From assembly GCA_001824485.1 (NCBI GenBank), contig MHXP01000208.1, forward strand, positions 1-49,004: a DNA stretch of 49,004 nt, written 5' to 3'. The stretch's first letter is position 1. Every line of letters starts with the position of its first letter. Below the pieces are notes generated by a model that had not been told where the DNA came from, ran no database searches, and worked only from the letters and a program-made list of their open reading frames with translations. Of the stretch, positions 17,241-40,472 are shown in pieces. A program made the position numbers and the translations under genes. This DNA is from Planctomycetes bacterium GWA2_39_15 (GTDB taxonomy: Bacteria > Planctomycetota > Brocadiia > Brocadiales > Brocadiaceae).

Positions 17241-17248
17241 ATTTGACA

Positions 17249-20386: not shown

Positions 20387-22036
20387 TTAATTTTTCTTCA
20401 TTATTCTCTTAAAACCTTTAGCTATATTATAGAAGGATCTGAAAAAAACAAATCTCCCCAAATAAACATGATACATAAAAAGTAGGTGATAGAAAAATCC
20501 ATGTATGACATTATAATCGTCCAGAAAAGCTTTCTTAGTCTTTATTTTAATGCGATGATAACAATGCTTGCATAACACTATTGTGTAAAGCCTAATTGTG
20601 TCCAGGGGGTGTTTATACCTGGAAATTTGGTGGCACAATGGACACTCAACCGTGAAAGCATAAACAGTTTTCCCTTCGTACGTATCAGATTCCTTTTTTG
20701 AAGACAATACTTTTCCTTTCATAAAAAGTTGGGTAAAGTCTAAATACATAATCCTTCTTCTAATTTTATTGAACTTGCGGTCGCTTATCTTAGTAAGATT
20801 TATTACAGGGAATTTGCTTTTGATAAACTGCACCTTATCACTAACAAGATTATGCTCAATTGCATGTCTCCAGACTTGAGAGTCTGGCACTGCGAGAAGC
20901 CAACGTAGACGTATATCGTACTCAGGATGTTTCATCCGCCAATCAAGTGACTCTTTAATTGTTTCCTCTGTCTCTTCAGGATCACCGAAGATTAGATTGC
21001 CTCCGGCATTTACTCCGGCATCGCCTGCCAGCTTAAATGCCTTATCAACATCGGCTTTTGTGGTATGCTTTCTCATGCTCTTTAAAACCTTATCGCTCAT
21101 ACTCTCCACACCTATTCCAAGTGTCAAGATGCCAGAGTCCTTTAAAATTTTGAGCATTTTCTCATTCACATTATCGGCTCTCCACTGTGCCATCCATCTG
21201 ATGTTGTATTTTTTTATTCTAGAAGCAAACTCATATACTCTTTTTTCATCAAAAGAGAAAAGCTCGTCCAGAATATTCAATACATTTGTATTATATTTTC
21301 TGACAAGATAGTCAATTTCTTGAAAAACATTATCAAGCGACCTCTGTCTGTACTTTTGACCAAGAGGATGATAGCAAAATGTACAATTGTAAGGGCATGA
21401 TCTCGCTGTAATAATCTCATGAAGCCTCACTTTTTCGTCAATATCATGAAAAAGAGCTCCAACCCCCGACAGTTCCACCCTCTTTATAGAAAGCCATTTG
21501 CTATATTCAAGACCTTCATCATGAGGAAACGGCAGTGAATCCAAATCCGATATTGCTTCCCTTGGCGCCGTAACAGTCAAGCCGTTATCATTATCGTGAA
21601 AAATTAACCCTCTTACCTTGGCGATCTCCCCATCGCTTGTCAACGCAGCGGCAAGCTCAGCCATCGTAATTTCGCCTTCACCTATAACCCCGTAATCAAT
21701 CTTCATATTCTCCAGGACCAGCTTTGGGTCCGCGGTAATAATCGCTCCGCCTACGACTGTTATAATTTCTGGGTTTATTTTCTTTGCAATTTCTACAACC
21801 TCGCTGACTTCGTTCCAATAGAAAGACATTGCTCCGGTGCATATGACATCAATATGCTTGTCCTTAATGCATTTGTGCAATTGCTGTTCGATTGAGGCAT
21901 CATAGTGACAGAGATTCAGACAGAACACATTAAAACCTTTATGCTTCATATATGAAACGACATAGCCAAAACCAATCGGGAAAAAATACGATTCTCCTGC
22001 CCTAGCAATCTTAGGAACAACAAACAAAAAATTCAC
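20387..22036 (-). CDS. B12-binding-domain (class B) radical SAM enzyme with C-terminal zinc ribbon and hydrophobic tail
   Basis: VIGEGEITMAEL. ITARSCPYNCTFCYH. C-terminal ECPLCHQ..CKHCYH, then FFYHLLFMYHVYLGRFVFF. GTG start with the strong SD GGGAGG 8 nt upstream. Confidence 0.85.
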   Translation of the reverse strand: MNFLFVVPKIARAGESYFFPIGFGYVVSYMKHKGFNVFCLNLCHYDASIEQQLHKCIKDKHIDVICTGAMSFYWNEVSEVVEIAKKINPEIITVVGGAIITADPKLVLENMKIDYGVIGEGEITMAELAAALTSDGEIAKVRGLIFHDNDNGLTVTAPREAISDLDSLPFPHDEGLEYSKWLSIKRVELSGVGALFHDIDEKVRLHEIITARSCPYNCTFCYHPLGQKYRQRSLDNVFQEIDYLVRKYNTNVLNILDELFSFDEKRVYEFASRIKKYNIRWMAQWRADNVNEKMLKILKDSGILTLGIGVESMSDKVLKSMRKHTTKADVDKAFKLAGDAGVNAGGNLIFGDPEETEETIKESLDWRMKHPEYDIRLRWLLAVPDSQVWRHAIEHNLVSDKVQFIKSKFPVINLTKISDRKFNKIRRRIMYLDFTQLFMKGKVLSSKKESDTYEGKTVYAFTVECPLCHQISRYKHPLDTIRLYTIVLCKHCYHRIKIKTKKAFLDDYNVIHGFFYHLLFMYHVYLGRFVFFRSFYNIAKGFKRIMKKN

Positions 22037-22124
22037 TATAAGTACCTCCCTGAATAGAAAGTCAACTTTTTAGTAACTGGATCAATAATGACATCCTAGT
22101 CTTTCATCTTAACAAGAACTTCCA

Positions 22125-23183
22125 TTAAAGGTCTTCTGCAACCGCACGATAGACGGGCATAAAGTCCGCGTGATACGGCGAAGAAGGATTTAAAAGTGCA
22201 GGTAATGTAATATGATTTGAAGGGTGAATCTTGTATTGTATATTTTTCACTATATTCCACATATTTTTTACACACGGTATATGTTTTATTTCCTCTTTTA
22301 TCCTTTCGACGCATCCCAAAGCCCCCAAGGAACCATAACGGTTTTGGAAATGGCGATTTGACTTGTACCTCAGATGTGCCCAGAATGCTTGTTTTACAAC
22401 AGCATGTGCTTCACCAATCGTAATGCCATCCTGTTTCATTAATTCTTCCGATAGAGTATTATAAAAAATTTGATATGATGGAAACCAGTTGTGACTTGTA
22501 ATCCAATCATAATGTTCTATAGGTTGTTGCTGTTTATGCGTTTGATGTATTATATGGAAACAATCAAGCTTTTTGCTATTACCCAGAATTGCTGCAAGAC
22601 AGCTTGGCAACAAATCGTTTCCCAAAGACCTATCAGGTATAGCATCATTTTCAAACGTCCTTTTTAAAATAGGAGTACGATATACGGAAAACAAATTATT
22701 GGAATAATTTGATAAATGATTTAAAAACCTTTTAGACGCTGTTTCTTCTTCTCTTGAAGGCAACAGATATTCCCAAATATTATCAAATTGACCATATGGT
22801 CCACTTTGCCTAAGACGAAAAACAGCACCAATACCATGACACGCAATATACGCTGGATTCAGTTCTAAAAAATCAATACAACTCTCTAAACTTTTTGGAA
22901 CTAAAAAATCATCATCAGCCAACAAAGAGGCGTATGGTGTAGATACTTCTTGAAGTAATTGTTTAGTACATTTAGATACATTTAGGACAGGGTATTCATG
23001 ATATATAATATTAAGTTTATCCTCTAATTTTTCTATTATTTCCTTCAGCCGTTTAACATGCAACTCATTGCTTGAATCACCGATATGTATCCAATGCTTA
23101 AAATTGGTATCAGCAAAGTAGTTAAGCAACCTAATTAAAAAATCTGACCGATTTTTTGTCGGTATTATTATTGTGTACATCAT
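22125..23183 (-). CDS. GT-A (family-2-like) glycosyltransferase
   Basis: YTIIIPTKNRSDFL at the N-terminus and an acidic LLADDDFLV (DxD-like). 352 aa. The C-terminal half is unassigned. Confidence 0.6.
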   Translation of the reverse strand: MMYTIIIPTKNRSDFLIRLLNYFADTNFKHWIHIGDSSNELHVKRLKEIIEKLEDKLNIIYHEYPVLNVSKCTKQLLQEVSTPYASLLADDDFLVPKSLESCIDFLELNPAYIACHGIGAVFRLRQSGPYGQFDNIWEYLLPSREEETASKRFLNHLSNYSNNLFSVYRTPILKRTFENDAIPDRSLGNDLLPSCLAAILGNSKKLDCFHIIHQTHKQQQPIEHYDWITSHNWFPSYQIFYNTLSEELMKQDGITIGEAHAVVKQAFWAHLRYKSNRHFQNRYGSLGALGCVERIKEEIKHIPCVKNMWNIVKNIQYKIHPSNHITLPALLNPSSPYHADFMPVYRAVAEDL

Positions 23184-23371
23184 ATGGATCTCTTTTTTAA
23201 CCCAAAAACCGCTAAAAATTTAAATTTCCATTACGTAAAACTGTTTGAAGTTCAATGTAATTATTTAAAATTGCATTCTTATCCATTCCAAAACCTTCTT
23301 TGATGTTTTTAAGAACGAATTCAATCATTGCTAGGATTGTGTTGCTTTATAGGTGAAAAATTGTATGTTGT

Positions 23372-24841
23372 TTAATTTTCAAGTAAGTTTCTCTTGAGTC
23401 TTGTCTTTGTCATTTCTTCGATATGCTTTTTGATGTGTGGTCCAAATTTATTTTCAACCATATCCAAATATTTTTGATTCTCAAAGTATTTATGAAAGCC
23501 GTCATCTCTGAATTTCAAAACTTCTTTTGCACTGATATACTTTGTTGGAAGTGGAAGCATTTCGTAGGAGTGCTGTGAAAAACCATACCATTCTTTTGGA
23601 AGCTCCCACCCTTCTCTAAGTGCAATATCATAAAGTTTTGACCCTGGATACGCCATGGCACAATAAAAATTTACAAATTCACAATTCAAATCCATTGCCA
23701 TATCAAGGGTTTCCTGCATTGTGCCGGGATTATCATCTGGCAGACCAAAGATATAATTACCTATCACTTTTATGCCTTCGCGCTGCATTGCCTGCACAAC
23801 ATTCTTTATATCCCTTACTCTCATCCTTTTTTCAGCACCATCCCTTACATCAGGATTAGCTGATTCAATACCGAGGGCAAGCCAGTTAATTCCAGCCTTT
23901 TTCATACTTTGCAAATTTTCCAGTTTTACAGTATCAACCCTTGCATATGCCCAGATATTCAGGTCATAACCCTTCTTAATCAGTAAATCTACTATGGACA
24001 TATAATGTCTTTCACTCAGAACAAATAATTCATCCACAATCTTGATATTTCCTATTCCATAATCCCTTATCAATACCCCCATCTCTTCAACAACCAATTC
24101 AGGGCTTCTGTATCTTATCCCAGGCTTGCCAAAAGGTGCATTGATACAGCAAAACGCACATGAATACGGACACCCAAGGCTTGTATATACTGCCCCGTAG
24201 GGCATCCTGTTTTCAAGACTGTCAAAGCAGTGCCAGTTATGTGCCCTGTATTTTTCCATGGGGAGTAAATCCCATGCAGCAACAGACAACACTTCATCCA
24301 GATTCTTAATAAGACACGCTCTTGGATTATTTTTAATTTTACCGTCTTTGTAATACCAGAGACCATCGACAACTGAATAATCAGTTTTTCCTGCCTTCAA
24401 TACCCGAATTAAACTTGTTAATGTATATGGTCCTTCACCTTCTATAACAAAATCCGCCTTTGCCTCCTGTAGGGTTTGTCCGGGGAGTGCTGACGGATGA
24501 AGACCTCCTATAGCTACTTTTGAAGATGTATTTTCTTTGAGTGCCTTGCAGATCTTTTCTGCAACTGTCATATTCTGTGTGGATGCGGAAGGCTGTGAGC
24601 CATATACAATCACAGCAGATAAAAGCGGATTCAATTCTTTGGCCCGCAGTGAGGTCTCCTCATGAGTGATGTTTTCTGCATTAGAATCGATAATTGCCAC
24701 AGAAAAACCGTTATTTCTTAAATATGAGGCAATCACTGCAATCCAGAAAGGTGGTTCAATTGCAGAATATTCTTTCCCTAAATCTTGATAGACCTGTTTT
24801 CTATCCCCGGGGTTAATCAGGACTATATCCAATTTACTCAT
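23372..24841 (-). CDS. B12-binding-domain (class B) radical SAM enzyme
   Basis: VIEGEGPYTL. YTSLGCPYSCAFCC (CxxxCxxC). 489 aa. 8-nt overlap with the transketolase C-subunit gene upstream. Confidence 0.85.
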   Translation of the reverse strand: MSKLDIVLINPGDRKQVYQDLGKEYSAIEPPFWIAVIASYLRNNGFSVAIIDSNAENITHEETSLRAKELNPLLSAVIVYGSQPSASTQNMTVAEKICKALKENTSSKVAIGGLHPSALPGQTLQEAKADFVIEGEGPYTLTSLIRVLKAGKTDYSVVDGLWYYKDGKIKNNPRACLIKNLDEVLSVAAWDLLPMEKYRAHNWHCFDSLENRMPYGAVYTSLGCPYSCAFCCINAPFGKPGIRYRSPELVVEEMGVLIRDYGIGNIKIVDELFVLSERHYMSIVDLLIKKGYDLNIWAYARVDTVKLENLQSMKKAGINWLALGIESANPDVRDGAEKRMRVRDIKNVVQAMQREGIKVIGNYIFGLPDDNPGTMQETLDMAMDLNCEFVNFYCAMAYPGSKLYDIALREGWELPKEWYGFSQHSYEMLPLPTKYISAKEVLKFRDDGFHKYFENQKYLDMVENKFGPHIKKHIEEMTKTRLKRNLLEN

Positions 24842-25793
24842 CTAATACATCCTTTATTGTCTGGATAACAATCTCGTCATCTAACTTATTTAGCTTATGA
24901 AGATGTTCTCTATTTCCCATCTCAAAAGTATAAGTATCTTCAATGCCCATTCTTTTTAATCTTATGTTTGAGTTTTTTCTATCTAATATGCACGAGACCA
25001 GACTATCCAAACCTCCCTTATTTATGAAGGCCTCTTCAAGAGTTATAAGACAATCGTATTTATCTATTAATTTTAGGAATAAATCTTCATTAAATGGTTT
25101 CAGTAAAAAGACATCAATGACTCCAATATTAATATTTGAACCATTTAACAAACCTGCAACCTTCATAGCTCGATGTGTCATATACCCTGTTGAAATCAGG
25201 CAAACTTTTTCACCCCTTTTCAATTCTTTTAATCCCATTGCCATATCTAAATCTTTTGGCTTATTATAAATCTGTGATAGTGGTTTTCCATCAAACCTTA
25301 TATATTTAGGTTTTTTTACCTTAATTGAATAATCCGCAAACCATTGAGCCAAAACCCAATCACTTGGTGAAAATATAATAAAGTTAGGAAGGGATCCCAT
25401 TATGGTAATATCCTCAAGACAGTGATGTGTCGGCCCGGATACATCGTAGCTAAAACCCGCACCAACTCCGATGAGATTTACATTAATCTCTTTAACTTGA
25501 GACACTAATGAGAGATTATTCCTTATCTGCTCATAAGCCCTCATCGTTAAAAATGGAGCTATAGCATAGGCATATACAGTAAAACCCTCCAATGCCAGAC
25601 CTGTTGAGATATTTATAAGATTCTGTTCAGCAATACCAACATTTATAAATCTATCCTTAAAATCCACTCTCAATTTATCCAGTTTTGGTGATCCGAAATC
25701 TGCTGATAGAAAAAAGATATTTTTATCTTCGTGCATACGGTTATAAATCTCTTCTATAAAGACATCTCTCATTGTTTTTATTTCTAACTTCAT
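24834..25793 (-). CDS. transketolase, C-terminal (pyrimidine-binding) subunit
   Basis: FINVGIAEQNLINISTGLALEG. 319 aa. 4-nt overlap with the N-terminal subunit gene. Confidence 0.85.
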   Translation of the reverse strand: MKLEIKTMRDVFIEEIYNRMHEDKNIFFLSADFGSPKLDKLRVDFKDRFINVGIAEQNLINISTGLALEGFTVYAYAIAPFLTMRAYEQIRNNLSLVSQVKEINVNLIGVGAGFSYDVSGPTHHCLEDITIMGSLPNFIIFSPSDWVLAQWFADYSIKVKKPKYIRFDGKPLSQIYNKPKDLDMAMGLKELKRGEKVCLISTGYMTHRAMKVAGLLNGSNINIGVIDVFLLKPFNEDLFLKLIDKYDCLITLEEAFINKGGLDSLVSCILDRKNSNIRLKRMGIEDTYTFEMGNREHLHKLNKLDDEIVIQTIKDVLDE

Positions 25794-26641
25794 TTCAAAC
25801 CTGCAATTGCCGTTTCAATTTCATTTTCCTTTAAGACCTTAATATGACTTAATGGGTCTGTCTCAAGGGATGGGACACCTTTACCTTTTACCGTATTTGC
25901 TATAATCACCTTTGGCTTATCATTTCTATCTTCCTTAAATTTTATCATGGTGTTATAGAGATGCTTTACATCATGGCCATCAACTGCTTCTACATCCCAT
26001 TTAAAAACCTTAAACTTCTCATTCAAGGGATCCAAATCCAAAATATTTTTGCAATAATCGAGCATGCAGATTTTATTATTGTCAATTATAAGCCTTAAAT
26101 TATCCAATTTGTGTTCTCCGGCAAACATAACAGCTTCCCATACCGAGCCTTCATATAATTCGCCATCACCAATCAATACAAATACTTTTTCATTCCTATT
26201 TTTTCTCTTCAGTGCCAAAGCCATACCGCAAGCAACTCCCAATCCGTGTCCTAAAGAACCATTTGTTGTCTCAAATCCAGGGATGATGCAGTCAGGAATA
26301 CCGCCAAGAAATGAACCCTCCTTACAAACCCTACCTAACTCATGCTTATCAAAAAAACCAAGGTCAGCAAGTATGGGGTAAAATGAGATTGCACCATGAC
26401 CCTTACTGATAATGAATCTGTCTCTATCCTGCAATTGTATATCGGATGGATTAAAACTGAGAACCTTTCCATAATACAAAACAACAAATATTTCTACACA
26501 GGACAGAGAAGATGCCAATCTTGTCTCCGGAGCGATTCTATGGATATTCAGAGTTTCTTTCCTTACCCACTTAGCCTTATCTTTTAGAAATTCAATCATA
26601 CTATTGTTCATGCCGTTTTGGGGATATTTTTTGAATACCAT
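25790..26641 (-). CDS. transketolase, N-terminal (ThDP-binding) subunit
   Basis: SKGHGAISFYP, GSLGHGLGVACGMA and IGDGELYEGSVWEA (ThDP/Mg motif). The track start overlaps 26608..27555 by 34 nt. Internal ATGs at 26611 and 26599 are alternative starts. Confidence 0.85.
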   Translation of the reverse strand: MVFKKYPQNGMNNSMIEFLKDKAKWVRKETLNIHRIAPETRLASSLSCVEIFVVLYYGKVLSFNPSDIQLQDRDRFIISKGHGAISFYPILADLGFFDKHELGRVCKEGSFLGGIPDCIIPGFETTNGSLGHGLGVACGMALALKRKNRNEKVFVLIGDGELYEGSVWEAVMFAGEHKLDNLRLIIDNNKICMLDYCKNILDLDPLNEKFKVFKWDVEAVDGHDVKHLYNTMIKFKEDRNDKPKVIIANTVKGKGVPSLETDPLSHIKVLKENEIETAIAGLK

Positions 26642-27555
26642 CCATAAGTTGTTTTCAGTCCCTCTTCAAGGGTAGTTGATGGTTTCCATCCCAAGTTCAA
26701 GAATTTTGAACTGTCCAATAGTTTTCTGGATGCACCATCCGGCTTGCCTGTATCCCATTCAATCTCCCCTTTGAATTCTACAATCCGTGACACAATTTCA
26801 GCAAGCTCTCTTATTGAATAGTCAATTCCTGTCCCTAAATTGTACTGGGTATTCTGAAATCTTCCTGCATTTTTCATGGCAAAGACAGAGGCATCAGCCA
26901 CATCTTTGCTGAAAATAAATTCCCTTCTTGGATTTCCACTCCCCCACAGTATGACCTTATCCCACCCTCCGATTTTTGCCTCGTGAATTTTTTTTATCAA
27001 AGCAGACAATACATGGGAGTTTTCCAAATCAAAATTATCCATTGGTCCATACATTGAATTGGGGATGAGGGCAATAAAACGATTGGTTTTATATTGATTA
27101 TTATAGGACTTGCATGCAATTATGCCTACAATCTTTGCGGCTGCATAGGCATCGCTTGTATCCTCTATCTCTCCTGTCAGCAAATATTCCTCTTTTATTG
27201 GCTGTAGACAATTCTTAGGATAAACACATGATGAGCCGTAGAAAATGAGGTGTTTTACATTATATGTATGAGATGCCTGAAATATATTGTCCTGAATGGC
27301 AATATTCGTATGAAGGAATGTTGCTGGATAGGTTTTATTGGCTATTATGCCCCCTGTTAATCCGGCGCAGAGGAATACATACTCAGGCTGCTCTTTTTTA
27401 AAAAAATCCTCTACTGATTTCTGGTCTATTAAATCAAGCTCCTTATGAGTTATAGTTAATATATTACGATACCCTTCTGATTTTAATCTCTTTAATATTG
27501 CCGACCCTAATAAACCTGTATGCCCTGCAACATAAATCTTTGAGTCTTTAAACAT
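26608..27555 (-). CDS. GDP-L-fucose synthase-like (Fcl/ColC-type) NDP-4-keto-6-deoxy-sugar epimerase/reductase
   Basis: KIYVAGHTGLLGSAI (Fcl-type GHxGxxGS), YAAAK, NLGTGIDYSIRELAE. 315 aa. Confidence 0.75.
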   Translation of the reverse strand: MFKDSKIYVAGHTGLLGSAILKRLKSEGYRNILTITHKELDLIDQKSVEDFFKKEQPEYVFLCAGLTGGIIANKTYPATFLHTNIAIQDNIFQASHTYNVKHLIFYGSSCVYPKNCLQPIKEEYLLTGEIEDTSDAYAAAKIVGIIACKSYNNQYKTNRFIALIPNSMYGPMDNFDLENSHVLSALIKKIHEAKIGGWDKVILWGSGNPRREFIFSKDVADASVFAMKNAGRFQNTQYNLGTGIDYSIRELAEIVSRIVEFKGEIEWDTGKPDGASRKLLDSSKFLNLGWKPSTTLEEGLKTTYGWYSKNIPKTA

Positions 27556-28486
27556 TACTATACTTACTGTTTGTAATTATCCTATACCCCTTGATGAGTT
27601 CCCTGATTCCCATATCAAGCGAATACATAGGACTAAACCCGGTCTTTTCAATCTTTTCATTAGAAACAATATAATCCCTTTTATCGGGATCCTCCCCTAT
27701 CGGTGACTCTAAATACACAAAATCAGGAATAAGGTCTTTTATTTTTGCGCATAGATCAAGCTTTGAGAGATTGGCATCAGACAAACCCACATTATACGGT
27801 TCGTTTTTCATCTTATCAAAGTTATCAATCGCATGGATAAACGCCCTCGCAACATCGCGAATATGGATATAATTCCGTTTGAAATGCCCTTCAAAGATTA
27901 CAACGAATCTATCATTTATTGCCCTATATGTGAAATCATTCACGAGCAAATCAATCCTCATCCGTGGAGACATGCCAAAAACCGTAGCCAACCTAAAACT
28001 TATAGAGTTTCCTCTGTCGAGTACAATTTTCTCCGCCTCAACCTTTGCCTTTCCATATAAAGAAATTGGTTTCAATGGGGTGGTCTCAGTACAGCAAATA
28101 CCCTTCTGGCCAACGCCATACCCACTGTTTGTGGTAGGTATAATTATTCTTTGTTCCTTTGATGTAAGCTTTACCAGGGAAGCCACTGCATTTACAATTG
28201 TGGTCTTAGCGCCTATTTTATCCCTGTTACAGAGTGGAGCTCCAACTAATGCTGCCAAAGGAATAATATAGTCCACATTTTTTAATAAGGTTTTTAATGT
28301 CTCCTCGTCCCTTGCGTCTTCCTTAACGACATCAAAATTTTCATAAACGCAACACTCAAGCAAAGAGTTTTGACCATACATGAAGTTGTCTAAGACCGTA
28401 ACCTTGTGACCAAGCCTCAATAATTCAGGAACCAGCACTGAACCCAAATATCCTGCACCGCCGGTAACTAAGATATTATACGACAT
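27548..28486 (-). CDS. NAD-dependent sugar epimerase/dehydratase (extended SDR)
   Basis: ILVTGGAGYLGSVL and YGKAK. Paralog-like to 42706..43737 (LAALVGAPLC versus LAAIVGDIPC). Confidence 0.8.
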   Translation of the reverse strand: MSYNILVTGGAGYLGSVLVPELLRLGHKVTVLDNFMYGQNSLLECCVYENFDVVKEDARDEETLKTLLKNVDYIIPLAALVGAPLCNRDKIGAKTTIVNAVASLVKLTSKEQRIIIPTTNSGYGVGQKGICCTETTPLKPISLYGKAKVEAEKIVLDRGNSISFRLATVFGMSPRMRIDLLVNDFTYRAINDRFVVIFEGHFKRNYIHIRDVARAFIHAIDNFDKMKNEPYNVGLSDANLSKLDLCAKIKDLIPDFVYLESPIGEDPDKRDYIVSNEKIEKTGFSPMYSLDMGIRELIKGYRIITNSKYSNV

Positions 28487-28531
28487 TTAATTTCCCCCTC
28501 CTAACCCAGGCAAGCCAGAGCCAAATTAATT

Positions 28532-28970
28532 TTTACCACGAAGGACACGAAGATTTATAAAACAAATCTTTTGATCCCATCTTTCAATACCTTCTCATTA
28601 AAGTTCATTAATAAACCTATCTTTATATTCGCTAACCTCATATATGTAAGCAACTGGGCTTCATGCACAGGGGCTATCTTATCAACACTCTTTAATTCTA
28701 ATATTAATTTATTTTCTATTAGCAGGTCTATCCGATAACCGCAAGAAATAAGAATGTTTTTATACTTTACAGGTAATTCCACCTCCATTTAAAAATTAAT
28801 TTTAGCCTGACTCAATTCATAGGCAAGGCATTGTTTATATGTATTTTCTAACAAACCAGGACCAAGTTCTCGATGAACTTCAATTGCCAATCCAATTACT
28901 TTATTAGATAACTCATCAAATTCCATAATTCCACTACTTCCTTAGTGTGCTTCGTGTTCTTCGTGGTAAA
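28532..28970 (-). mobile_element. 439-bp unit: GxxExxY gene bounded by 21-bp terminal inverted repeats
   Basis: 28532..28552 is tttaccacgaaggacacgaag. The reverse complement of 28950..28970 is tttaccacgaagaacacgaag (20/21 match). The unit carries its own RBS (aaggaag) upstream of the ATG at 28926. Confidence 0.5.
28555..28926 (-). pseudogene. GxxExxY-family gene interrupted by a single in-frame TAA
   Basis: My translation from the ATG at 28926 is MEFDELSNKVIGLAIEVHRELGPGLLENTYKQCLAYELSQAKINF-TAA(28791..28789). It continues in the same frame into the track ORF MEVELPVKYKN..(28555..28788). Together these form a full-length family member of about 123 aa. Confidence 0.75.
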
Positions 28971-29009
28971 TTTTATTTCCATTTTGCGCAACAGTTTATT
29001 TGTAAGGTA

Positions 29010-30212
29010 CTAAATATCTTTTAATGTCTTATGCAAATAATCTATCTTATCTCTTATATCATAAGGATGATTCCCTACAAAAAATCCATTATAATGGGCT
29101 ATGTCAGCATTTGTTGACCTGGTAACAATATGATCATAATATTTAATAACATCGTGTCTTAAAATATTTCCACCTGTTATAATCCTATGTTCAATACCAG
29201 CATCTTTTAACTTCTGCAACACACTTTTACGATCAATTTTTGAATTTGGATTAAGTATCATTGTAAAACAGAACCACGAACTTTCACCTGTTTCTTTCTG
29301 AATAATAAATCTCTCATCATTTTGAAAAAACTTCACAAAGTGTCTCGCATTCTCTCTTCTGGTTTTTACAAAACCTTCTAATTTATCTAATTGCCTTATA
29401 CCTATAGCGCCATGCATTTCACCTGGTCTCAAATTATATCCCGGCAGTATGAAACGGTATGCCTCAAAGAAATCATCCTCTCTTCTTTGGAAAATAGAAC
29501 TATCTTCATCCTGTCCTCGTGTCCAGCCATGGTTCCTGAGGGATTTCAAAATATTATAAATCTCCTTATCATTCGTAAGAACAAGGCCGCCTTCCATGGT
29601 AGATATATGATGAGAAAAAAACGTACTAAAGGTATTAACTAAACCAAATGTGCCAGTATACCTGCCATTAAATTTTGCCCCCATTGATTCGCAATTATCC
29701 TCAAGCAAAATTATATTATTTTTTTCGCAAATCTTTATTATCTCATCAAACTGGCAGGAATTTCCCAAAATACTGACAGCAACAATCATTTTAGTATTTT
29801 CAGTTATAGCCTTTTTTAATTCCTCTACATCATAGTTTAAAGTATGCAAATCAATATCAACAAATTTTAATTTTAGTCCATACTGGTGAAGCGGATGAAA
29901 GGTCGTTGACCACGAAATGCATGGGGCAATAACCTCATCACCTCTTTTTAAAGGATTTTCTTTTTTATAAAAAAGCGAAGCCACAGCAATGAGATTTGCT
30001 GAAGAGCCGGAATTAACCATCACAGCATATTTCATCCCAAAATATTTTGCGAATTTATCTTCAAACTCTCTTACTTTCTCACCCATGGTATACATACCGC
30101 TCTTCATCACTTCCAAAACTGCCTGCTCCTCCTCTTTACCCCATGTTGAACTAGTAAGTTCAAATCTCATCTCCACTTTATCTCCCATTTTGATAACTTG
30201 GTTTATAAACAA
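29010..30212 (-). CDS. ColD/E1-type PMP-dependent NDP-4-keto-6-deoxy-sugar 3-dehydratase (DegT fold with the PLP Lys replaced by His)
   Basis: FSTFFSHHISTMEGG aligns with MSFHAAKVMTTIEGG of the bona fide aminotransferase at 41554..42669, placing His where Lys sits. End-to-end resemblance to ColD as I recall it (SSTW.., SGSSANL, LLEDNCESMGA, HGWTR, LPGYN.RP, ETGESSWF). The track start is a TTG; ATGs at 30188 and 30170 are more likely. Confidence 0.75.
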   Translation of the reverse strand: MFINQVIKMGDKVEMRFELTSSTWGKEEEQAVLEVMKSGMYTMGEKVREFEDKFAKYFGMKYAVMVNSGSSANLIAVASLFYKKENPLKRGDEVIAPCISWSTTFHPLHQYGLKLKFVDIDLHTLNYDVEELKKAITENTKMIVAVSILGNSCQFDEIIKICEKNNIILLEDNCESMGAKFNGRYTGTFGLVNTFSTFFSHHISTMEGGLVLTNDKEIYNILKSLRNHGWTRGQDEDSSIFQRREDDFFEAYRFILPGYNLRPGEMHGAIGIRQLDKLEGFVKTRRENARHFVKFFQNDERFIIQKETGESSWFCFTMILNPNSKIDRKSVLQKLKDAGIEHRIITGGNILRHDVIKYYDHIVTRSTNADIAHYNGFFVGNHPYDIRDKIDYLHKTLKDI

Positions 30213-31182
30213 TAATTTCTGAACCGCTAAAATCGAACATAAAAGGTATGTGTAAATACCCTTTTAACGCTTTCTTCACTCTTTTCTGTGCCTCCGGTTC
30301 AATATATAAAAGCATAAAACCTCCTCCTCCAGCACCTAGCAATTTACCTCCTACTGCACCATGCCTTATAGCGGTTTCATAAATATGGTCAATTTCGCTG
30401 TTACTAATTTTACTCGATAGTTGCTTTTTTAATTCCCAGGACTCATTTAATAGCTTCCCAAATTCAATAAAATTGCCCTTACTCGAAATAATTACCTTGT
30501 ATGCTTCATCAACCAAATCCCTTATTGCTTTCAATTCATATTTTTTTTCATTAATACTTTGAATTTGCTCTTTAGCTATTTCAGATGCATATCTTGATAT
30601 TCCCGTAAAAAAAAGCATAAATTTACTTTCAAAACTTCTTAAATTATTCTTCTCCATTATTATTGGTTCAACTATAATATTGCCGGTTCTTAGAAACTCA
30701 ATAGTATTAACCCCCCCACAAGCAGCCCAAGCCTGGTCCTGAGAACCTACATTTTCTTTTAGCAAATTCTGTTCAATATGAATTGCCGTCTTGTAGAGAT
30801 CTTCCTTTGAAATAATCTTGCCGTTAATCGCATACAGAGTTTTTAGAAGCCCTACCGTGAAAGCAGAACTTGAACCCATACCAGAACGAGCAGGTATGTC
30901 GGCGTCATGATGAATTTCAAGTCCTTGTTCAACTTGTAAATATTTTAATGTTTCCCTAACCGACGGATGCTGAATTTCATCTATATTAGATACCGTCTCT
31001 ACCTTTGAATACGCAACTCGAAACCTATGCGCGAAAAAAGGTGGCAGTTCCCGGCATGTTATGTAACAGTATTTATCTATTGTTGCACCTAAAACCTTAC
31101 CTCCATGTTCCAGATACCACGAAGGATAATCTGTTCCTCCCCCGAAAAACGAAATTCTATGTGGAGTTCTTGAAATAATCAT
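30178..31182 (-). CDS. GHMP sugar kinase, HddA-like (D-glycero-D-manno-heptose 7-phosphate kinase type)
   Basis: RTPHRISFFGGGTDYP and the GHMP motif PARSGMGSSSAF. 334 aa. Adjacent to a nucleotidyltransferase gene. Confidence 0.7.
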   Translation of the reverse strand: MIISRTPHRISFFGGGTDYPSWYLEHGGKVLGATIDKYCYITCRELPPFFAHRFRVAYSKVETVSNIDEIQHPSVRETLKYLQVEQGLEIHHDADIPARSGMGSSSAFTVGLLKTLYAINGKIISKEDLYKTAIHIEQNLLKENVGSQDQAWAACGGVNTIEFLRTGNIIVEPIIMEKNNLRSFESKFMLFFTGISRYASEIAKEQIQSINEKKYELKAIRDLVDEAYKVIISSKGNFIEFGKLLNESWELKKQLSSKISNSEIDHIYETAIRHGAVGGKLLGAGGGGFMLLYIEPEAQKRVKKALKGYLHIPFMFDFSGSEIIVYKPSYQNGR

Positions 31183-31188
31183 ATTCCG

Positions 31189-31890
31189 TCACTTTAAATA
31201 AAACACCAATTCCTTCTTTGCTCTTTCATAATCTTCTGGAATTCCAATGTCGATAAAATAATCATTACTAATATATGAAAACACATTTATTTTCTTTGCA
31301 ATTTTTTGTATGAAGTCTCTTTCAAAAGAAAATTGGTTTCCAAATTCATCAATAATACTTGAAATAACTTTACTATTTATTATGTAAATACCTCCGTTAA
31401 TATACCCAAAACTATTGCTAGCCTTTTCTTCAAATTGTACTATTTTGTCATTCTGTATAATTACGGCCCCATACCTACTACAATTTTCCGTTGCCTTTAC
31501 AGCAATTGTTAAATTTGAACTTTTCCCCCGATGGAAATCATACATTTCAGAGAGATTAATACAAAAGAATGTATCACCATTCAAAACTATAACATTATCG
31601 TCACTAACATATTTTAAAGCTTCCCGAATCGCACCTCCTGTTCCCAAAGGTATTGTCTCAAAAACATATCCTATTTCGATATTTTTATATCTAAAACCAA
31701 AATAATTTTCTATAGCCTCATGCTTGTAGCAAACCGAAAGCAAAACCTTCTTTACTTTCTGGTTTATTAAATAATCCAGTAGAAACGATAAAAATGGTCT
31801 TCCATTTATATCTGCCATTGGTTTTGGAACATTTTTCACAATACTCTGAAGTCTTGTTCCAAAACCGCCTGCCAAAATTATTACCTCCAT
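31189..31890 (-). CDS. sugar-1-phosphate nucleotidyltransferase, HddC-like
   Basis: MEVIILAGGFGTRL .. VPKPMADINGRPFL. 233 aa. Confidence 0.8.
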   Translation of the reverse strand: MEVIILAGGFGTRLQSIVKNVPKPMADINGRPFLSFLLDYLINQKVKKVLLSVCYKHEAIENYFGFRYKNIEIGYVFETIPLGTGGAIREALKYVSDDNVIVLNGDTFFCINLSEMYDFHRGKSSNLTIAVKATENCSRYGAVIIQNDKIVQFEEKASNSFGYINGGIYIINSKVISSIIDEFGNQFSFERDFIQKIAKKINVFSYISNDYFIDIGIPEDYERAKKELVFYLK

Positions 31891-32058: not shown

Positions 32059-33459
32059 CTAAAAGGATTTACTTTGGCTTGCACCTCTATAATATTGTGT
32101 TTTTATTAATTTGTCTTTTTCTAAACCTAAATTTAGTTTTTCATTGCACCGTTGCAAACCATTGACAACATGCGCTGCAAATTCCTCATCGCTCATTTGA
32201 GTCATATTTACTCTTAAATCCTGCCTATCACCTAATCTTAACAGATACGATTCTTCGTCTTCAATAAAACCATGCCTTACAGCATAATCATACATCTGGC
32301 TGCCAGGCAGCGGAAGAAGGTATCCTGTGGATGGGTAAATGTTATTTTCTATACATGCATCAAATGTTTTCTTTATTGTTTCAGGGGTCTCTTGGGGATA
32401 TCCAAATACAACAGTAGTCCATGTTTGAAGCCCCGCTTTTTGAAGTAATCTTGTTTGCTTAGAAAATTGATTCACAGGAATCCTTCTTTTCATCTCCCTC
32501 AAAATATTAGAATCGGCAGACTCAAGACCATAACATAACCCTAAACAACCGGCTTCTTTCATGTTTTCAATCATAGGCATATCTGCCTCATCATCAAAAA
32601 GGTTGGGCCGGCAGTTTGCCATCCAATAAAATTTGGCTTTTTCATTAAGAATTTTTTCAACGAACTCCAGTGTGTGTTTTTTAGAAGACAAAGCTAAATC
32701 ATCCCAAAATATAACGAAATTTATTGAGTATTTTTCAATAAGAGACTTTATTTCGGTAACAATTGATTCTGAAGTTCTGCGTCTATACGGCATATCTTGG
32801 AATATATGATAGCAAAAAGTGCATTTTGCAATACAACCTCTTGCAATACTTACTTGTAATGCTCTTATTTCCTCTCTTGGAATTGGTAATGGATCGTTGA
32901 TTCGCTGTTTGGTGCCATCTATATATATTTCTAAATCAAAAAGAGAATAATTCATGAAAGGCAAAGATGAAATATCTTTGATCAAAGGCCTTGGAGGAGT
33001 ACAAACCACGTTGCCATCCTTCATAAAGCAAATACCACAGACTTCCTCAAGAGGTTTGGATTCTGAAAGTTTCCGAAGTATGTCGACAATAGTCTCTTCA
33101 CCCTCACCAATTACTGCTATGTCAACTTTCGTACGTCTAAGTAGCGTATCAAAAACTGATGTAGCTACAGTGTTGCCTACAATAATTTTAGAATACGGGT
33201 GACATTTCTTAATTAGAGCTGCAAGTGATTTAATTATCCTATAACCCGTAACAACGGTACCCATGCAAATTACATCATATTTTCTCCCTCTGATAAATTG
33301 CTCTATTTGTCCATCTGTGTATCTATAAGCATTAATATCCAGCAAATCAAAATCAAAACCCGCATTTTTCATTGCTGTAGTAATATATCCCAAACCAACA
33401 GGAAATAACTTTACGGGTGATTCTGGTCTTAAACAAATATTAATAACTAAAATATTCAT
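32059..33459 (-). CDS. B12-binding-domain (class B) radical SAM enzyme
   Basis: VIGEGEETIVDIL. IARGCIAKCTFCYH. 466 aa. RBS gaaaggaag 6 nt upstream of the ATG. Confidence 0.85.
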   Translation of the reverse strand: MNILVINICLRPESPVKLFPVGLGYITTAMKNAGFDFDLLDINAYRYTDGQIEQFIRGRKYDVICMGTVVTGYRIIKSLAALIKKCHPYSKIIVGNTVATSVFDTLLRRTKVDIAVIGEGEETIVDILRKLSESKPLEEVCGICFMKDGNVVCTPPRPLIKDISSLPFMNYSLFDLEIYIDGTKQRINDPLPIPREEIRALQVSIARGCIAKCTFCYHIFQDMPYRRRTSESIVTEIKSLIEKYSINFVIFWDDLALSSKKHTLEFVEKILNEKAKFYWMANCRPNLFDDEADMPMIENMKEAGCLGLCYGLESADSNILREMKRRIPVNQFSKQTRLLQKAGLQTWTTVVFGYPQETPETIKKTFDACIENNIYPSTGYLLPLPGSQMYDYAVRHGFIEDEESYLLRLGDRQDLRVNMTQMSDEEFAAHVVNGLQRCNEKLNLGLEKDKLIKTQYYRGASQSKSF

Positions 33460-33667: not shown

Positions 33668-35524
33668 TTATTTTCTCATACTATAATTTCCACTAAAGTT
33701 AATAACTTTATTCCCACCCCACTTTTCAGCATATTTAATATTGGCTTTATTTATTACTTCACCCCAGCTTAATCCATCATCAAATCCTTTTAAACACCAT
33801 TTGAAGTATTCACCCATTCTCTTGCCTCCGTCCCCATCCCTAAATGGATCAAGCAAATCCAAAAAAGGTCCCCAATCGCCAATGTCGAGATTTGAATCAG
33901 GGTTTATTTTAAAAGACTTAATTGCTGCAATCATCTTCTCTAGATCATTAAATATAAACCGTTCATAACCCCATTTGTAAAATACATGATTCCTATGATA
34001 TGTCATATCATAATGTATACCTCTACATCCAGCAATAACCGCTTCTACAACTGCCGAAGAAATACCACAACCTACAGCTATATCAGCACCAAAAGAAGCG
34101 TCTGATGGGAAACGTCCAAGCTCGTTTTCCAATTTTATACACCGCCCACTTTCTATTGCCTCGATAAATAAAGGATGAATTGTTGTAAGATTATTAATAA
34201 CAAAAGGTTTTTTCGATTTAATAATCAAACCAATTGTCGAATCATCAAGCATCAATTGCAAAAATGATTGATAAAATTTAGCCATGCTATTCATTGAGAA
34301 TTGCAAATCAGGCCCACACATGCTATCAAATAATGCTATTATAAACTTGACTCCTTTTGACCTTAGTTTCTGACAATAATTTTCATACTTCTGGTAAATA
34401 TTATTTGTAAAACCTGAAACAATACATATTGCCTCTCGGCCATAATTATGTTTGAAATAATTTTCCCCTCTTTCATTCCAAATGAACAATACATGCTTTG
34501 GATTTGGATTAACACCTATAAAAGAAGTCGGTTGATAAAGAAACTCTGATCTTTGTTTACCAGCAAGAAATCCAGACATTCCATTTTTTATATCAAAAGC
34601 AATCGCTTGCGCTATATTTTTTGCCATACCTTCTTCTGGCGTATAGTTAATCTTAATATTAAAATCATCGTAAAAAGAGCACCAAAAATGAACTTGTTTT
34701 ATCAAATCATTAGCAACCTTGATGATCCAGGCTTCTATCTTATTTTGTACTACACCTTTCTCAAATAACATATTCTTTAATATTCTAGATGGTTGCCAAT
34801 AGTTTTTCTCATTTCCTTCGATAATTCCCTTTTCTAAAGAAACCCAATTAAATCTTTGGCATTCAATTTTTTGAATAATTTTTCTTCCAATAGATTTGCC
34901 CCTAGAGGAGTTGATATCGAAATAAATTAAAATCCGTTCTGGTTCTACGCCACTTTCAAAATACCAATTCAGATCATTCCTTCGCGAAGGATCGATTCCT
35001 TCACTATAATGACAGGCAATAGTTCCACATTGGTTAACGTGAAAAGGAAGATAATTATTCTTTCTAAATTTAATAGAACTTTCACGAACTTTGTCGGAAT
35101 AGCTTTTCACGTTATCTTTTATTAGTTTTTTTAGTAAACTTCCGCTTGTGAAACCCAAGAATATTTGGTTTACCAATAAAATTGGAATATCCTCAAAATT
35201 CCAACATTCTTTAAGTAACATAAAAATACCTAACTTCGGCGCCTTAACTACACCTTCTTGAAGAGAAATTTCTTTACCATTGCGTTTGTACCATTTAATT
35301 ACACATGCTTGTCGCACAAATGGATAGATTTCTTGTTTCACAATATACTGAAAGTACATAAGAACACGCCGGCTCGGTAATATTTTAACTAATTGTTTAA
35401 AAATGTCGGTTGACTCAATACTATATGAAATATGAATAGCTAATTCCGAAGCTTTTTCTTCTACCTCATACTTCAAAACGTCACCATGAATTCCCCTCAT
35501 TTCACCAAGCTGGTATTCTAACAT
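33668..35524 (-). CDS. 618-aa orphan; putative GT-B-type transferase, third member of the orphan family
   Basis: C-terminal LIIKSKKPF ..(about 45 aa).. VGCGISSAVVEAVIAGCRGIHYD has the same layout as the KPHP..SxxxxEA..P blocks of 1292..3154 and 7168..9126. I recognise nothing in the N-terminal 400 aa. Confidence 0.5.
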   Translation of the reverse strand: MLEYQLGEMRGIHGDVLKYEVEEKASELAIHISYSIESTDIFKQLVKILPSRRVLMYFQYIVKQEIYPFVRQACVIKWYKRNGKEISLQEGVVKAPKLGIFMLLKECWNFEDIPILLVNQIFLGFTSGSLLKKLIKDNVKSYSDKVRESSIKFRKNNYLPFHVNQCGTIACHYSEGIDPSRRNDLNWYFESGVEPERILIYFDINSSRGKSIGRKIIQKIECQRFNWVSLEKGIIEGNEKNYWQPSRILKNMLFEKGVVQNKIEAWIIKVANDLIKQVHFWCSFYDDFNIKINYTPEEGMAKNIAQAIAFDIKNGMSGFLAGKQRSEFLYQPTSFIGVNPNPKHVLFIWNERGENYFKHNYGREAICIVSGFTNNIYQKYENYCQKLRSKGVKFIIALFDSMCGPDLQFSMNSMAKFYQSFLQLMLDDSTIGLIIKSKKPFVINNLTTIHPLFIEAIESGRCIKLENELGRFPSDASFGADIAVGCGISSAVVEAVIAGCRGIHYDMTYHRNHVFYKWGYERFIFNDLEKMIAAIKSFKINPDSNLDIGDWGPFLDLLDPFRDGDGGKRMGEYFKWCLKGFDDGLSWGEVINKANIKYAEKWGGNKVINFSGNYSMRK

Positions 35525-35555: not shown

Positions 35556-36944
35556 TCAGGTTTGACGAAATCCTCTAAAACTCGTATTCCTTTCTGAATA
35601 GAGTTTTTTTGATTGTTCAAGGTAATTTAATAATTTTTTATTAAAATAATTTGTAAACAATTTTTTGTTTGCTTCAAAAAGACACTGATGAAATTCATCA
35701 TCATCCATATCTGTAAAATTAATCGCCAATAAATCCGAATTGGTATGCTTATTTTCATAAAAATCAGCACAGTCTCTAAGAAGTCTTTTTCCAATAGCAT
35801 AATAATAAAGCGGTGAACCTGGATAAGGGGTTACAGGCCGGATAGTCCGCATTTGAGCACCATCATCATATTTCAATAAAAAATCTACACCCTTCTTTAT
35901 AGTTTCTTTATTATCACCTATATTGCCAAATATAATATTAAAGCCAGGGCTTATTCCAGCATTTAAAGTAGCTTCTATACCATTAATAATTTGTTCTGTT
36001 GTTAAGCCCTTTTTCATATTTTTCAGTACCTGATCATCCATGGCTTCAATTCCATAATTGATAAACACACAACCTGCCTTTCGCATTAGCTTTAAGACTT
36101 CTGGCTTGGCATAATTTAATCTACCATTACAGTCCCATTTTATATTTAATTCTGCCTTGACAAAATCTTCACATAAACTTATAGTCCTTGAAATTGATGA
36201 CATTAGTAATTCATCAGAAAACGCTATATAAGTAATACCATAATTCCATTTTAAAAATTTTATTTCTTCGATAATACTTCCATTACTACGAGGTCTAAAA
36301 CCTTCATCCATGCGATAGCAAAAACTACATTCAAAAGTACATCCTCTACCAGATAAAACAGGCATTATAAAATCACTATTTACTGCATGTGGCATACGTA
36401 AAAGTCTATAATATTCTATAGGAAATAATTCATAAGCGGGAAAAGGAATGGAATCTACATCTTTTACTAGGTTTCGTCGCTCATTTATAATAATCTTATC
36501 TTCTTCACGAAAAGCTATTCCTTTTACAGAAGTTAAAGCTTTATTATTGCCAACAGCCTTCATTAATTCAATAATTGTTTCTTCTCCTTCTCCAATAACA
36601 ACCGCATCAGCTTGAGTTTTCCTAAGAAAAAACGCAGGTTCAGGAGAAGGACCATGCCCGCCAATTATATAAAAAGGCCTTTGCTTAGATTTATTTATTG
36701 CATCAGAAATTTTTAACAACTTTCTGTACTGATAATATCCTGCTATAACACTTATCCCGACAACATCAAACTTATTTTTGTTTAAATACTCTGTTAAATG
36801 CTCATCAGGATAATGATTCATATCTTGGCTATAAACCTCTATTTCATATCCATTCTTCTGTAGCACAGAGGCAACATATGCTAATCCTTGGGGAAACCAA
36901 TGTACATACGATTCATTATCATATACAACCAGTAAGATTCTCAT
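35556..36944 (-). CDS. B12-binding-domain (class B) radical SAM enzyme
   Basis: VIGEGEETIIEL. SGRGCTFECSFCYR. 462 aa. Most similar in length and layout to 32059..33459. Confidence 0.85.
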   Translation of the reverse strand: MRILLVVYDNESYVHWFPQGLAYVASVLQKNGYEIEVYSQDMNHYPDEHLTEYLNKNKFDVVGISVIAGYYQYRKLLKISDAINKSKQRPFYIIGGHGPSPEPAFFLRKTQADAVVIGEGEETIIELMKAVGNNKALTSVKGIAFREEDKIIINERRNLVKDVDSIPFPAYELFPIEYYRLLRMPHAVNSDFIMPVLSGRGCTFECSFCYRMDEGFRPRSNGSIIEEIKFLKWNYGITYIAFSDELLMSSISRTISLCEDFVKAELNIKWDCNGRLNYAKPEVLKLMRKAGCVFINYGIEAMDDQVLKNMKKGLTTEQIINGIEATLNAGISPGFNIIFGNIGDNKETIKKGVDFLLKYDDGAQMRTIRPVTPYPGSPLYYYAIGKRLLRDCADFYENKHTNSDLLAINFTDMDDDEFHQCLFEANKKLFTNYFNKKLLNYLEQSKKLYSERNTSFRGFRQT

Positions 36945-40471: not shown

Positions 40472-40472
40472 T

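Follow-up and report, generated by a model that had tools for sequence, protein, structure and literature searches.

Deoxy sugars and heptoses shape the surface antigens of many bacteria. The colitose pathway of Escherichia coli O55 and Yersinia pseudotuberculosis (Gmd, ColD, ColC) employs the 3-dehydratase ColD, which needs no E3-type partner, followed by ColC, an Fcl-family enzyme with a Cys/His dyad. In Campylobacter jejuni HS:5 and HS:11, 3,6-dideoxyheptoses linked to guanosine diphosphate (GDP) are made from an HddA/HddC-type GDP-heptose precursor by a 4,6-dehydratase, a C3-dehydratase dependent on pyridoxal 5'-phosphate (PLP) and glutamate, a separate cupin C5-epimerase, and an Fcl-family C4-reductase (PMC10680097). 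The C. jejuni HS:2 pathway to GDP-D-glycero-L-gluco-heptose (Cj1427, Cj1430, Cj1428) starts from HddA/HddC-like precursor genes, contains no 3-dehydratase, and ends with a cupin epimerase and a reductase-only enzyme with a Tyr/Arg dyad. When Cj1427 and the HS:5 C3-dehydratase were mixed in vitro, GDP-D-glycero-3-deoxy-4-keto-heptose was formed (m/z 616.08), and the GDP-3-deoxy-heptoses were called novel (PMC10680097); this is the sole paper in the searched literature that mentions 3-deoxy-heptoses. In the branching pathways to yersiniose, erwiniose, and caryophyllose, the thiamine diphosphate (ThDP) enzymes YerE and ErwE use a CDP-3,6-dideoxy-4-keto-hexose, and a 3-dehydratase with a free 4-keto product stands beside the ThDP enzyme and a reductase (PMC9306805). 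Here, we describe a ColD-like gene and its operon in a 49-kb stretch of DNA from Planctomycetes bacterium GWA2_39_15 (contig MHXP01000208.1, positions 1 to 49,004; hereafter the window, meaning the whole stretch analyzed). The operon probably serves to tailor GDP-heptose, its core being a C4 oxidation followed by a C3 deoxygenation in which the C6 hydroxyl is kept.

The operon runs from 31890 to 23372 with adjacent genes overlapping or abutting, in the order nucleotidyltransferase, GHMP kinase, ColD-like gene of the DegT family, a 0.5-kb insert, short-chain dehydrogenase/reductase (SDR), Fcl-like SDR, split transketolase-like pair, and B12-binding radical S-adenosyl methionine (SAM) enzyme (Table 1). 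Like the colitose clusters, it encodes a full-length ColD homologue with His188 and the ligands of PLP or pyridoxamine 5'-phosphate (PMP), without any need for an E3-type partner, and then an Fcl-family enzyme that keeps the Cys/His dyad. Unlike them, the window has no Gmd, ManB, or ManC; a C4-dehydrogenase is predicted to introduce the keto group, and the enzyme probably acts on a heptose whose O6 is retained. With the HS:5/HS:11 pathway, the operon shares the HddA/HddC-type precursor genes, the C3-dehydratase, and the Fcl-family enzyme, but neither the 4,6-dehydratase nor the cupin C5-epimerase is found in the window, and the dehydratase homologues of Campylobacter and Helicobacter cluster with ColD rather than with the window enzyme. 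The SDR is an orthologue of the HS:2 enzyme Cj1427 and, as in HS:2, adjoins an Fcl-family gene among HddA/HddC-like genes; the Fcl-family enzyme differs from the HS:2 reductase in its Cys/His dyad. The pair of enzymes combined in vitro, an artificial mix across serotypes that demonstrates feasible chemistry, is encoded side by side here as a natural, widely conserved gene couple with extra ThDP and radical SAM partners. As in the YerE and ErwE pathways, a 3-dehydratase whose product would have a free 4-keto group is encoded beside a ThDP enzyme and a reductase, but the sugar of the window would be linked to GDP instead of CDP, the ThDP protein is a two-subunit transketolase-like (or E1-like) one, and branching may be its role. 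We take YerE and ErwE to belong to another, non-transketolase family of ThDP enzymes. While each enzyme type is known, the natural pairing of C4-dehydrogenase and 3-dehydratase, the separate clade of ColD homologues, and the rebuilt transketolase-like partner are undescribed in the literature searched.

The ColD-like 3-dehydratase

The open reading frame (ORF) 29010..30212, as delimited mechanically, comprises 400 aa from a TTG and contains FSTFFSHHISTMEGG. The protein probably starts at the ATG at 30188 instead, a codon that overlaps the kinase stop: both the gene calls on identical metagenome contigs and the closest homologues have 392 aa. In a phmmer search against the PDB, the protein aligned end to end with E. 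coli O55 ColD (2gms; 455 bits, E 1.7e-135, residues 16-398) at about 53% identity, a match of about 400 residues at E 1e-135 that is far above chance level, and it has the DegT/aspartate-aminotransferase fold. The E1/RfbH structures, which represent the E1 dehydrase of the CDP pathway, reached merely 187-191 bits. An earlier note on this DNA had called the protein a ColD-type 3-dehydratase, and the scores support that type (455 bits to ColD) over the E1 type (191 bits to E1).

The earlier note had also read a His at the position of the PLP-lysine and had named a wrong His/Lys register as a possible refutation. Alignment to ColD bears the register out. The first His of SHH aligns with ColD His188, an assignment anchored by the mutant entries H188N (3b8x, 'SNHI') and H188K (2r0t, 'SKHI') in the same alignment output, and a His occupies this column in all 97 aligned homologues. 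Asp159, Glu162, Ser183, and Asn248, which we take to be the cofactor ligands of ColD, are identical in the alignment with 2gms. The true aminotransferase at 41554..42669 contains MSFHAAKVMTTIEGG; when the two proteins are anchored on the shared (T)xEGG, its Lys meets the first His of SHH, as had been proposed.

The protein has thousands of close relatives, with identities of about 80% across Nitrospirota, Elusimicrobia, Deltaproteobacteria, and others. A homologue 81% identical (P0105) is annotated from a metagenome-assembled genome (MAG) of Candidatus Kuenenia stuttgartiensis. The S-layer O-glycan of Kuenenia holds an unidentified 174-Da sugar unit (PMC5088730).

The probable C4-dehydrogenase and two clades of ColD homologues

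Downstream of the insert lie an extended SDR and an Fcl-like gene, as the earlier note described. Over its whole length (residues 1-311), the SDR matches PDB 6VO6/6VO8 with 374 bits (E 4e-111). Mapping to genomes placed the 6VO6 sequence, with 96% identity, on a gene of C. jejuni 414 in the capsule heptose locus, between an fcl-like gene and the genes hddA, gmhA, and hddC, and 6VO6 is thereby identified as Cj1427. This neighborhood is the arrangement Cj1428-Cj1427-...-Cj1425-Cj1424-Cj1423. The motif PTTNSGYG...YGKAK of the SDR includes the Tyr-x3-Lys but no acidic residue at the position of the Gmd glutamate; in a comparison aligned by eye on the YG anchor, the SDR (TTNSGYG) and Cj1427 (NTNSGYG) both have Ser where Gmd has its catalytic Glu (ASTSELYG). 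It is reported that Cj1427 holds NADH tightly, and has it re-oxidized by 2-oxoglutarate to yield L-2-hydroxyglutarate (PMC10680097); it does not take off O6. Judged from its sequence, the SDR is a Cj1427-type C4-dehydrogenase and no 4,6-dehydratase, contrary to the earlier suggestion that it might stand in for Gmd.

The alternative closest to the earlier suggestion is a GDP-3,6-dideoxy sugar, be it colitose or a 3,6-dideoxyheptose of the kind made by C. jejuni HS:5, for which the SDR or a gene outside would provide the 4,6-dehydratase. ColD and ColC-like enzymes do perform the final two colitose steps, the C. jejuni 3,6-dideoxyheptoses are made with a homologous C3-dehydratase (PMC10680097), and a dehydratase could be encoded beyond the window. 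However, besides the Ser of the SDR, family scans and tblastn with E. coli, L015 (one of the loci described below), and Campylobacter bilis queries found no Gmd/DdahA-type dehydratase in the window other than LegB (47458..48456). LegB is the sole partial Gmd-like match and the only hit of the C. bilis DdahA-like query (27% identity); it passes its own equivalog cut-off and adjoins NeuB. Nor did tblastn with the RmlC-like protein of C. bilis find an RmlC-type/cupin C5-epimerase in the 49-kb window, and the gmd-colC context of colitose clusters is likewise missing from it.

The comparison of loci bears on the same question. A total of 83 loci were collected in which the ColD homologue reaches 45% identity or more. 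The next gene on the same strand is a Cj1427-like SDR in 63 of them, and in seven the SDR lies elsewhere in the locus. Among the remaining 13, seven carry a true Gmd and are colitose-type, and four end at a contig edge (one of these also Gmd-linked). The Gmd-linked loci L066, L070, L074, L075, L076, and L083 have neither this SDR nor the kinase. Carriers of the cassette are found among Nitrospirota, Elusimicrobia, Delta-, Epsilon-, Alpha-, Beta-, and Gammaproteobacteria, and other groups. In a second sample, comprising 119 loci for which the SDR family served as the sole anchor, HddA-like genes were found in 56, HddC-like genes in 49, GmhA in 22, GmhB in 13, and Gmd in three; the SDR family is thus associated genomically with the genes of GDP-heptose synthesis.

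Neighbor-joining analysis split the ColD homologues into two clades with 100/100 bootstrap support. The nine members of clade I include E. coli ColD, the Gmd-linked loci, and loci of C. bilis and Helicobacter, both of which carry a Gmd-like 4,6-dehydratase, the former together with an RmlC-like epimerase; the C. bilis layout is that of the C. jejuni 3,6-dideoxyheptose route (PMC10680097). Clade II comprises the window enzyme together with all loci where the Cj1427-like SDR comes next. The window enzyme does not group with characterized ColD but lies in a sister clade. The simplest reading is that clade I acts on 6-deoxy-4-keto sugars and clade II on a 6-hydroxy-4-keto-heptose made by the dehydrogenase. 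In current annotation, clade II is lumped with aminotransferases or with 'E1', and it is now defined as a clade of its own. Even though a few clade II loci do hold a Gmd-like SDR, the position of the window enzyme outside the clade of Gmd- and DdahA-linked dehydratases and the direct pairing with a C4-dehydrogenase make a 3,6-dideoxy product quite unlikely. The 6-deoxy state that the earlier note assigned to the product is probably wrong because the SDR has no 4,6-dehydratase role, and of the GDP-linked 3,6-dideoxy sugar, possibly a heptose, that it proposed, the GDP linkage and the heptose are retained.

Probable supply of GDP-heptose

The motifs that the earlier note quoted for the GHMP kinase (FFGGGTDYP, SGMGSSSAF) and the nucleotidyltransferase (ILAGGFGTRL) are present. 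For the nucleotidyltransferase, HddC (NF049965) is the best NCBIfam family match with 235 bits, under the 300-bit cut-off, and the best structures are those of Y. pseudotuberculosis HddC (5xhw/6jq8; 156 bits, compared with 97-99 bits for ManC-type structures). The kinase is about 30% identical to C. jejuni HddA and scores 157 bits against the NCBIfam HddA model (NF049969), well under its 600-bit cut-off; its best structures are the heptose kinases 3k85, 4usk (WcbL), and 4n3o with 129-138 bits, compared with 75-79 bits for fucokinase. Because both proteins stay under the equivalog cut-offs, they are best described as HddA/HddC-like, not as HddA and HddC in the strict sense. Since heptose enzymes are the best structures for both, the description of the two genes in the earlier note as HddA/HddC-like is upheld, as against Fkp/ManC-like enzymes.

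The distance from HddA leaves room for a hexose pathway, in which an anomeric hexose kinase would lead to a GDP-mannose-like product that the SDR oxidizes at C4 and the ColD-type enzyme converts to GDP-3-deoxy-4-keto-hexose. The kinase resembles fucokinase too, with 114 bits against the NCBIfam fucokinase model in addition to the structures, the known substrate of ColD is a hexose, and the window has no GmhA or GmhB. The HddC-like gene is the sole heptose-synthesis neighbor of the kinase there. In other genomes, however, kinase orthologues are encoded together with GmhA and GmhB. In two Nitrospiraceae MAGs (L008, L012; 74-75% identity) and in a Campylobacteraceae MAG and a Sulfurimonas MAG (L024, L025; 61-62%), both heptose genes are co-operonic with the kinase, the transferase, the ColD-like gene, and the SDR. 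These GmhA/GmhB assignments were family-scanned in one MAG of each pair (L008, L024), where GmhA scored about 202 bits, under its 209-bit cut-off, and GmhB of L024 scored over the cut-off of TIGR00213. Heptose genes accompany the SDR family, whereas Gmd hardly ever does, the nearest structures of kinase and transferase are heptose enzymes, and no ManB/ManC-type genes are present. A hexose pathway is therefore very unlikely, and the substrate is probably a GDP-heptose, as the similarities of the two precursor enzymes suggest.

The earlier note had not recognized a Gmd-type 4,6-dehydratase, GmhA, or GmhB in the block, and the family scans and tblastn searches of the window agree. GmhA and GmhB must then come from elsewhere in the genome. 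A distant HAD gene (3148..3807), which had been put forward for the GmhB role, was rejected; it encodes a generic HAD_2 protein with no similarity to GmhB, and the E. coli GmhB query had no match in the window at E 1e-3.

The Fcl-like enzyme and the additional partners

The Fcl-like enzyme scores 393 bits against the NCBIfam Fcl model (NF047922), under the 500-bit cut-off, and matches the structures of DdahC (7anh, 305 bits) and E. coli GDP-fucose synthase (296 bits). Ser107, Cys109, Tyr136, Lys140, and His179 are conserved in the window and in 17 of 17 orthologues. In GDP-fucose synthase, the Cys/His dyad carries out the epimerizations, whereas DdahC and MlghC, two Campylobacter enzymes that act solely as reductases, have Thr/His and Tyr/Arg, respectively, at the dyad (PMC7949155). 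With the dyad intact and no cupin epimerase in the window, the Fcl-like enzyme most likely performs a ColC-like C5-epimerization and C4-reduction and would yield a GDP-3-deoxy-L-heptose.

The earlier note ended its block at 26608, which is only the upstream part of the tightly packed operon; the genes run on unbroken into the transketolase-like pair and the B12-radical-SAM gene, and both accompany the cassette in other genomes. The best structure for the N-terminal subunit of the pair is the N-terminal chain of a split transketolase (6yak, 164 bits), and the C-terminal subunit matches 6yaj with 117 bits. In the numbering of yeast transketolase, the window and nearly all orthologues retain the ThDP-binding and -activating residues His69, Asp157, Asn187, His263, Glu418, and His481. 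The substrate residues His30, His103, His469, Asp477, and Arg528 are all replaced in the window. Across the cassette orthologues, His30 is Arg in 28 and His103 is Ile in 27 of 35 N-terminal subunits, and in the 28 C-terminal subunits His469 is always Gly, Asp477 is Ser in 26, and Arg528 is Gly or Ala in 24 (Gly in the window). The replaced residues are those that contact the C1-hydroxyl of the donor (His30, His103), the C2-hydroxyl of the acceptor (Asp477), and the phosphate (His469, Arg528). In locus L015, a pyruvate-dehydrogenase-E1-type alpha/beta pair stands after the SDR genes in place of the transketolase-like pair, and in L077 an E1 alpha gene lies directly upstream of ColD.

Since sedoheptulose-7-phosphate is the start of heptose synthesis and both subunits match transketolase families and the split transketolase structure, the pair might be an ordinary transketolase retained solely to supply this sugar, with the cassette stopping at the Fcl-like step. 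The replacement of donor, acceptor, and phosphate residues alongside intact ThDP residues, in the window and most orthologues, renders this highly improbable, and the E1-type proteins of L015 and L077 cannot make sedoheptulose-7-phosphate. On the grounds of the active-site replacements and the E1-type swap in L015, the supplier role was rejected. The comparison with known transketolases and with these loci favors a role of the ThDP pair in moving a two-carbon unit to the nucleotide sugar, comparable to the action of YerE and ErwE on CDP-3,6-dideoxy-4-keto-glucose (PMC9306805).

The radical SAM enzyme at the end of the operon contains the cluster motif CPYSCAFC. Its best NCBIfam matches are HpnJ (161 bits) and BchE (153 bits), all well under cut-off, and its best structure, a weak match of 62 bits, is the diol dehydratase AprD4 (6fd2). 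Many cassette loci, some of them lacking the transketolase-like pair, encode homologues with 45-79% identity, and the enzyme is a frequent accessory partner of the ColD and Cj1427-like couple. It may methylate, cyclize, or dehydrate the sugar. A literature search for the combination of transketolase, radical SAM enzyme, and GDP-heptose returned nothing relevant.

Proposed route and the evidence weighed

In the route that we infer from homology, residues, gene order, co-occurrence, and clades, GmhA encoded elsewhere would make D-glycero-D-manno-heptose-7-phosphate, from which the HddA/HddC-like enzymes may produce GDP-heptose. The Cj1427-type SDR would oxidize C4 of the GDP-heptose, possibly recycling tightly bound NAD(H) through 2-oxoglutarate as Cj1427 itself does. 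The ColD-type enzyme, with its His188 base and PMP formed from L-glutamate, would then remove the 3-hydroxyl group to give the predicted core product with its C6 hydroxyl kept, a GDP-D-glycero-3-deoxy-4-keto-heptose, here of the D-threo configuration. Because ColD gives off 2-oxoglutarate and the dehydrogenase consumes it, the adjacent genes could sustain a small cofactor cycle, and the tight coupling of the ColD and SDR genes may reflect it. Epimerization at C5 and reduction at C4 by the Fcl/ColC-like enzyme would lead to a GDP-3-deoxy-L-heptose, a homologue of colitose that keeps the hydroxymethyl-bearing C6. The ThDP enzyme and the B12-radical-SAM enzyme may modify the sugar further, and the two-carbon unit would probably be accepted by the 4-keto intermediate or by an aldehyde formed later.

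How far the additional partners extend the sugar is a matter for a bolder proposal, in which the ThDP enzyme adds a two-carbon unit to the 3-deoxy-4-keto-heptose and the radical SAM enzyme methylates or cyclizes the product into a branched or carbocyclic C9 sugar. For this reading, which we regard as unlikely, pyruvate is the probable two-carbon donor because His103 is replaced by Ile. The pattern matches caryose of Burkholderia (Trinickia) caryophylli, with its 7 + 2 carbons, 3-deoxy position, terminal methyl group, and five-membered carbocycle, and the biosynthesis of caryose is stated to be unknown (PMC9092360). In Trinickia caryophylli, the cassette was found neither in a ColD scan seeded from a betaproteobacterium nor among the matches listed from a GC-biased DNA pattern scan, and the species is not among the top 120 homologues of the betaproteobacterial transketolase-like subunit; no search was aimed at that genome. 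Erwiniose and caryophyllose were considered as heptose-derived products as well and rejected, since both derive from CDP-3,6-dideoxy-4-keto-glucose and long 2-oxoacids (PMC9306805).

Several points weigh against a GDP-heptose tailoring operon whose product keeps the C6 hydroxyl. The enzyme assignments throughout the clade are drawn from sequence comparison, and the kinase, the HddC-like transferase, and the Fcl-like enzyme all fall below the equivalog cut-offs. The window contains no GmhA or GmhB by family scans and tblastn. Because the search for the 83 loci used peptide seeds taken from the window's own protein, the sample is biased, and the tree is a neighbor-joining one that leaves out the characterized C. 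jejuni HS:5 C3-dehydratase. Clade II is also not strictly '6-hydroxy', because in four of its loci (L015, L020, L084, and L026/L094) the Cj1427-like gene is directly followed by a Gmd-like SDR, with about 159 bits to the gmd model (region 12104..14866 in L015). Moreover, with AprD4 as the nearest structure of the radical SAM enzyme, a later radical 6-deoxygenation is conceivable. Should the tailoring operon nevertheless act as proposed, 6-hydroxy-3-deoxy-4-keto-heptose would be a new class of natural sugar that nature makes routinely, and the transketolase-like family with its rebuilt pockets and radical SAM partner would be candidates for new C-C chemistry on nucleotide sugars.

Organization of the operon and other features of the window

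The window has a G+C content of about 35%, carries every gene on the minus strand, and is one long surface-glycan locus. The features of the operon and the gene that comes after it are listed in Table 1. The same gene order was found again in a Nitrospirae MAG, and the closest named relatives of the block are Nitrospirota MAGs.

Table 1. Genes of the operon, in order of transcription, and the glycosyltransferase gene 3' of it.
Feature	Coordinates	Strand	Basis
HddC-like nucleotidyltransferase	31189..31890	-	NCBIfam HddC best match, HddC structures
HddA-like GHMP kinase, predicted heptose-7-phosphate 1-kinase	30178..31182	-	NCBIfam HddA, heptose-kinase structures
ColD-type PMP-dependent NDP-4-keto-sugar 3-dehydratase (putative), clade II	29010..30188 (mechanical ORF to TTG 30212)	-	PDB 2gms
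GxxExxY / PDDEXK_3 gene with in-frame TAA, passenger	28555..28926	-	Absent from related cassettes
Cj1427-like SDR, 312 aa	27548..28486	-	PDB 6VO6/6VO8
GDP-fucose-synthase / ColC-like SDR, 315 aa, predicted 5-epimerase/4-reductase	26608..27555	-	NCBIfam Fcl, PDB
Transketolase-like ThDP enzyme, N-terminal (PP) subunit	25790..26641	-	Pfam Transketolase_N
Transketolase-like ThDP enzyme, C-terminal (Pyr) subunit	24834..25793	-	Pfam Transket_pyr + Transketolase_C
B12-binding radical SAM enzyme	23372..24841	-	Pfam B12-binding + Radical_SAM; overlaps the 3' end of the C-terminal transketolase-like gene
GT2-family glycosyltransferase, candidate transferase for the product	22125..23183	-	NCBIfam TIGR04440

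The insert between the ColD-like gene and the SDR, noticed earlier as a GxxExxY unit, is indeed present as a PDDEXK_3 gene (GLLENTY) in which an in-frame TAA (28789..28791) separates stretches of 45 and 77 aa. Gene calls in two further assemblies, a JGI contig and an ENA contig, show this split too, so it is no local sequencing error. Neither of the related cassettes L001 and L005 has the insert, and in relatives the ColD gene abuts the SDR; the insert is a passenger outside the pathway. The GT2 glycosyltransferase gene comes after a 188-base gap 3' of the operon and scores 147 bits against TIGR04440, over the 70-bit cut-off. Its position is kept in L001 (89% identity) and L005 (49%).

The closest metagenome relative, L001, corresponds to 18465..31890 of the window, and its identity to the window varies from gene to gene: 56% for the nucleotidyltransferase, 97% for the kinase, 94% for ColD, 90% for the SDR, 74% for the Fcl-like enzyme, 92 and 97% for the transketolase-like subunits, 79% for the radical SAM enzyme, and 66% for an ABC transporter. 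An additional radical SAM gene is located between the SDR and the Fcl-like gene in L001. This mosaic, together with the extra gene, suggests gene-scale recombination inside the cassette.

A second tailoring module is found at 41554..45046. It includes an SDR (42706..43737) that is a Cj1427-like paralogue (34% identity, with a similar DLLVN motif), beside the Lys-containing aminotransferase and two hexapeptide acyltransferases (43737..44363, 44354..45046), and looks like a route of C4-oxidation, amination, and N-acylation to a 4-amino sugar. Nonulosonic-acid genes occupy 3794..11371 and 39773..48456. They include LegB, which scores over its cut-off, and a NeuB-type synthase (45959..47059). Cytidylyltransferase domains of the CTP_transf_3 family occur four times (39773..40471, 10634..11371, 4693..5418, and, fused to a GT2 domain, 9123..10478), with a DHDPS-family aldolase, an HMGL-like protein, and an Ldh_2 dehydrogenase in the same regions. 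There are five B12-binding radical SAM genes in the glycan locus (13916..15589, 20387..22036, 23372..24841, 32059..33459, and 35556..36944). A carbamoyltransferase is encoded at 37168..39003, and no family is matched by two ORFs of 618-652 aa (33668..35524 and 7168..9126). A C-terminal fragment of a DDE transposase (47099..47461, 120 aa) and a DUF559 endonuclease-like gene (16812..17249) lie within the locus and are further signs of mobile-element traffic.

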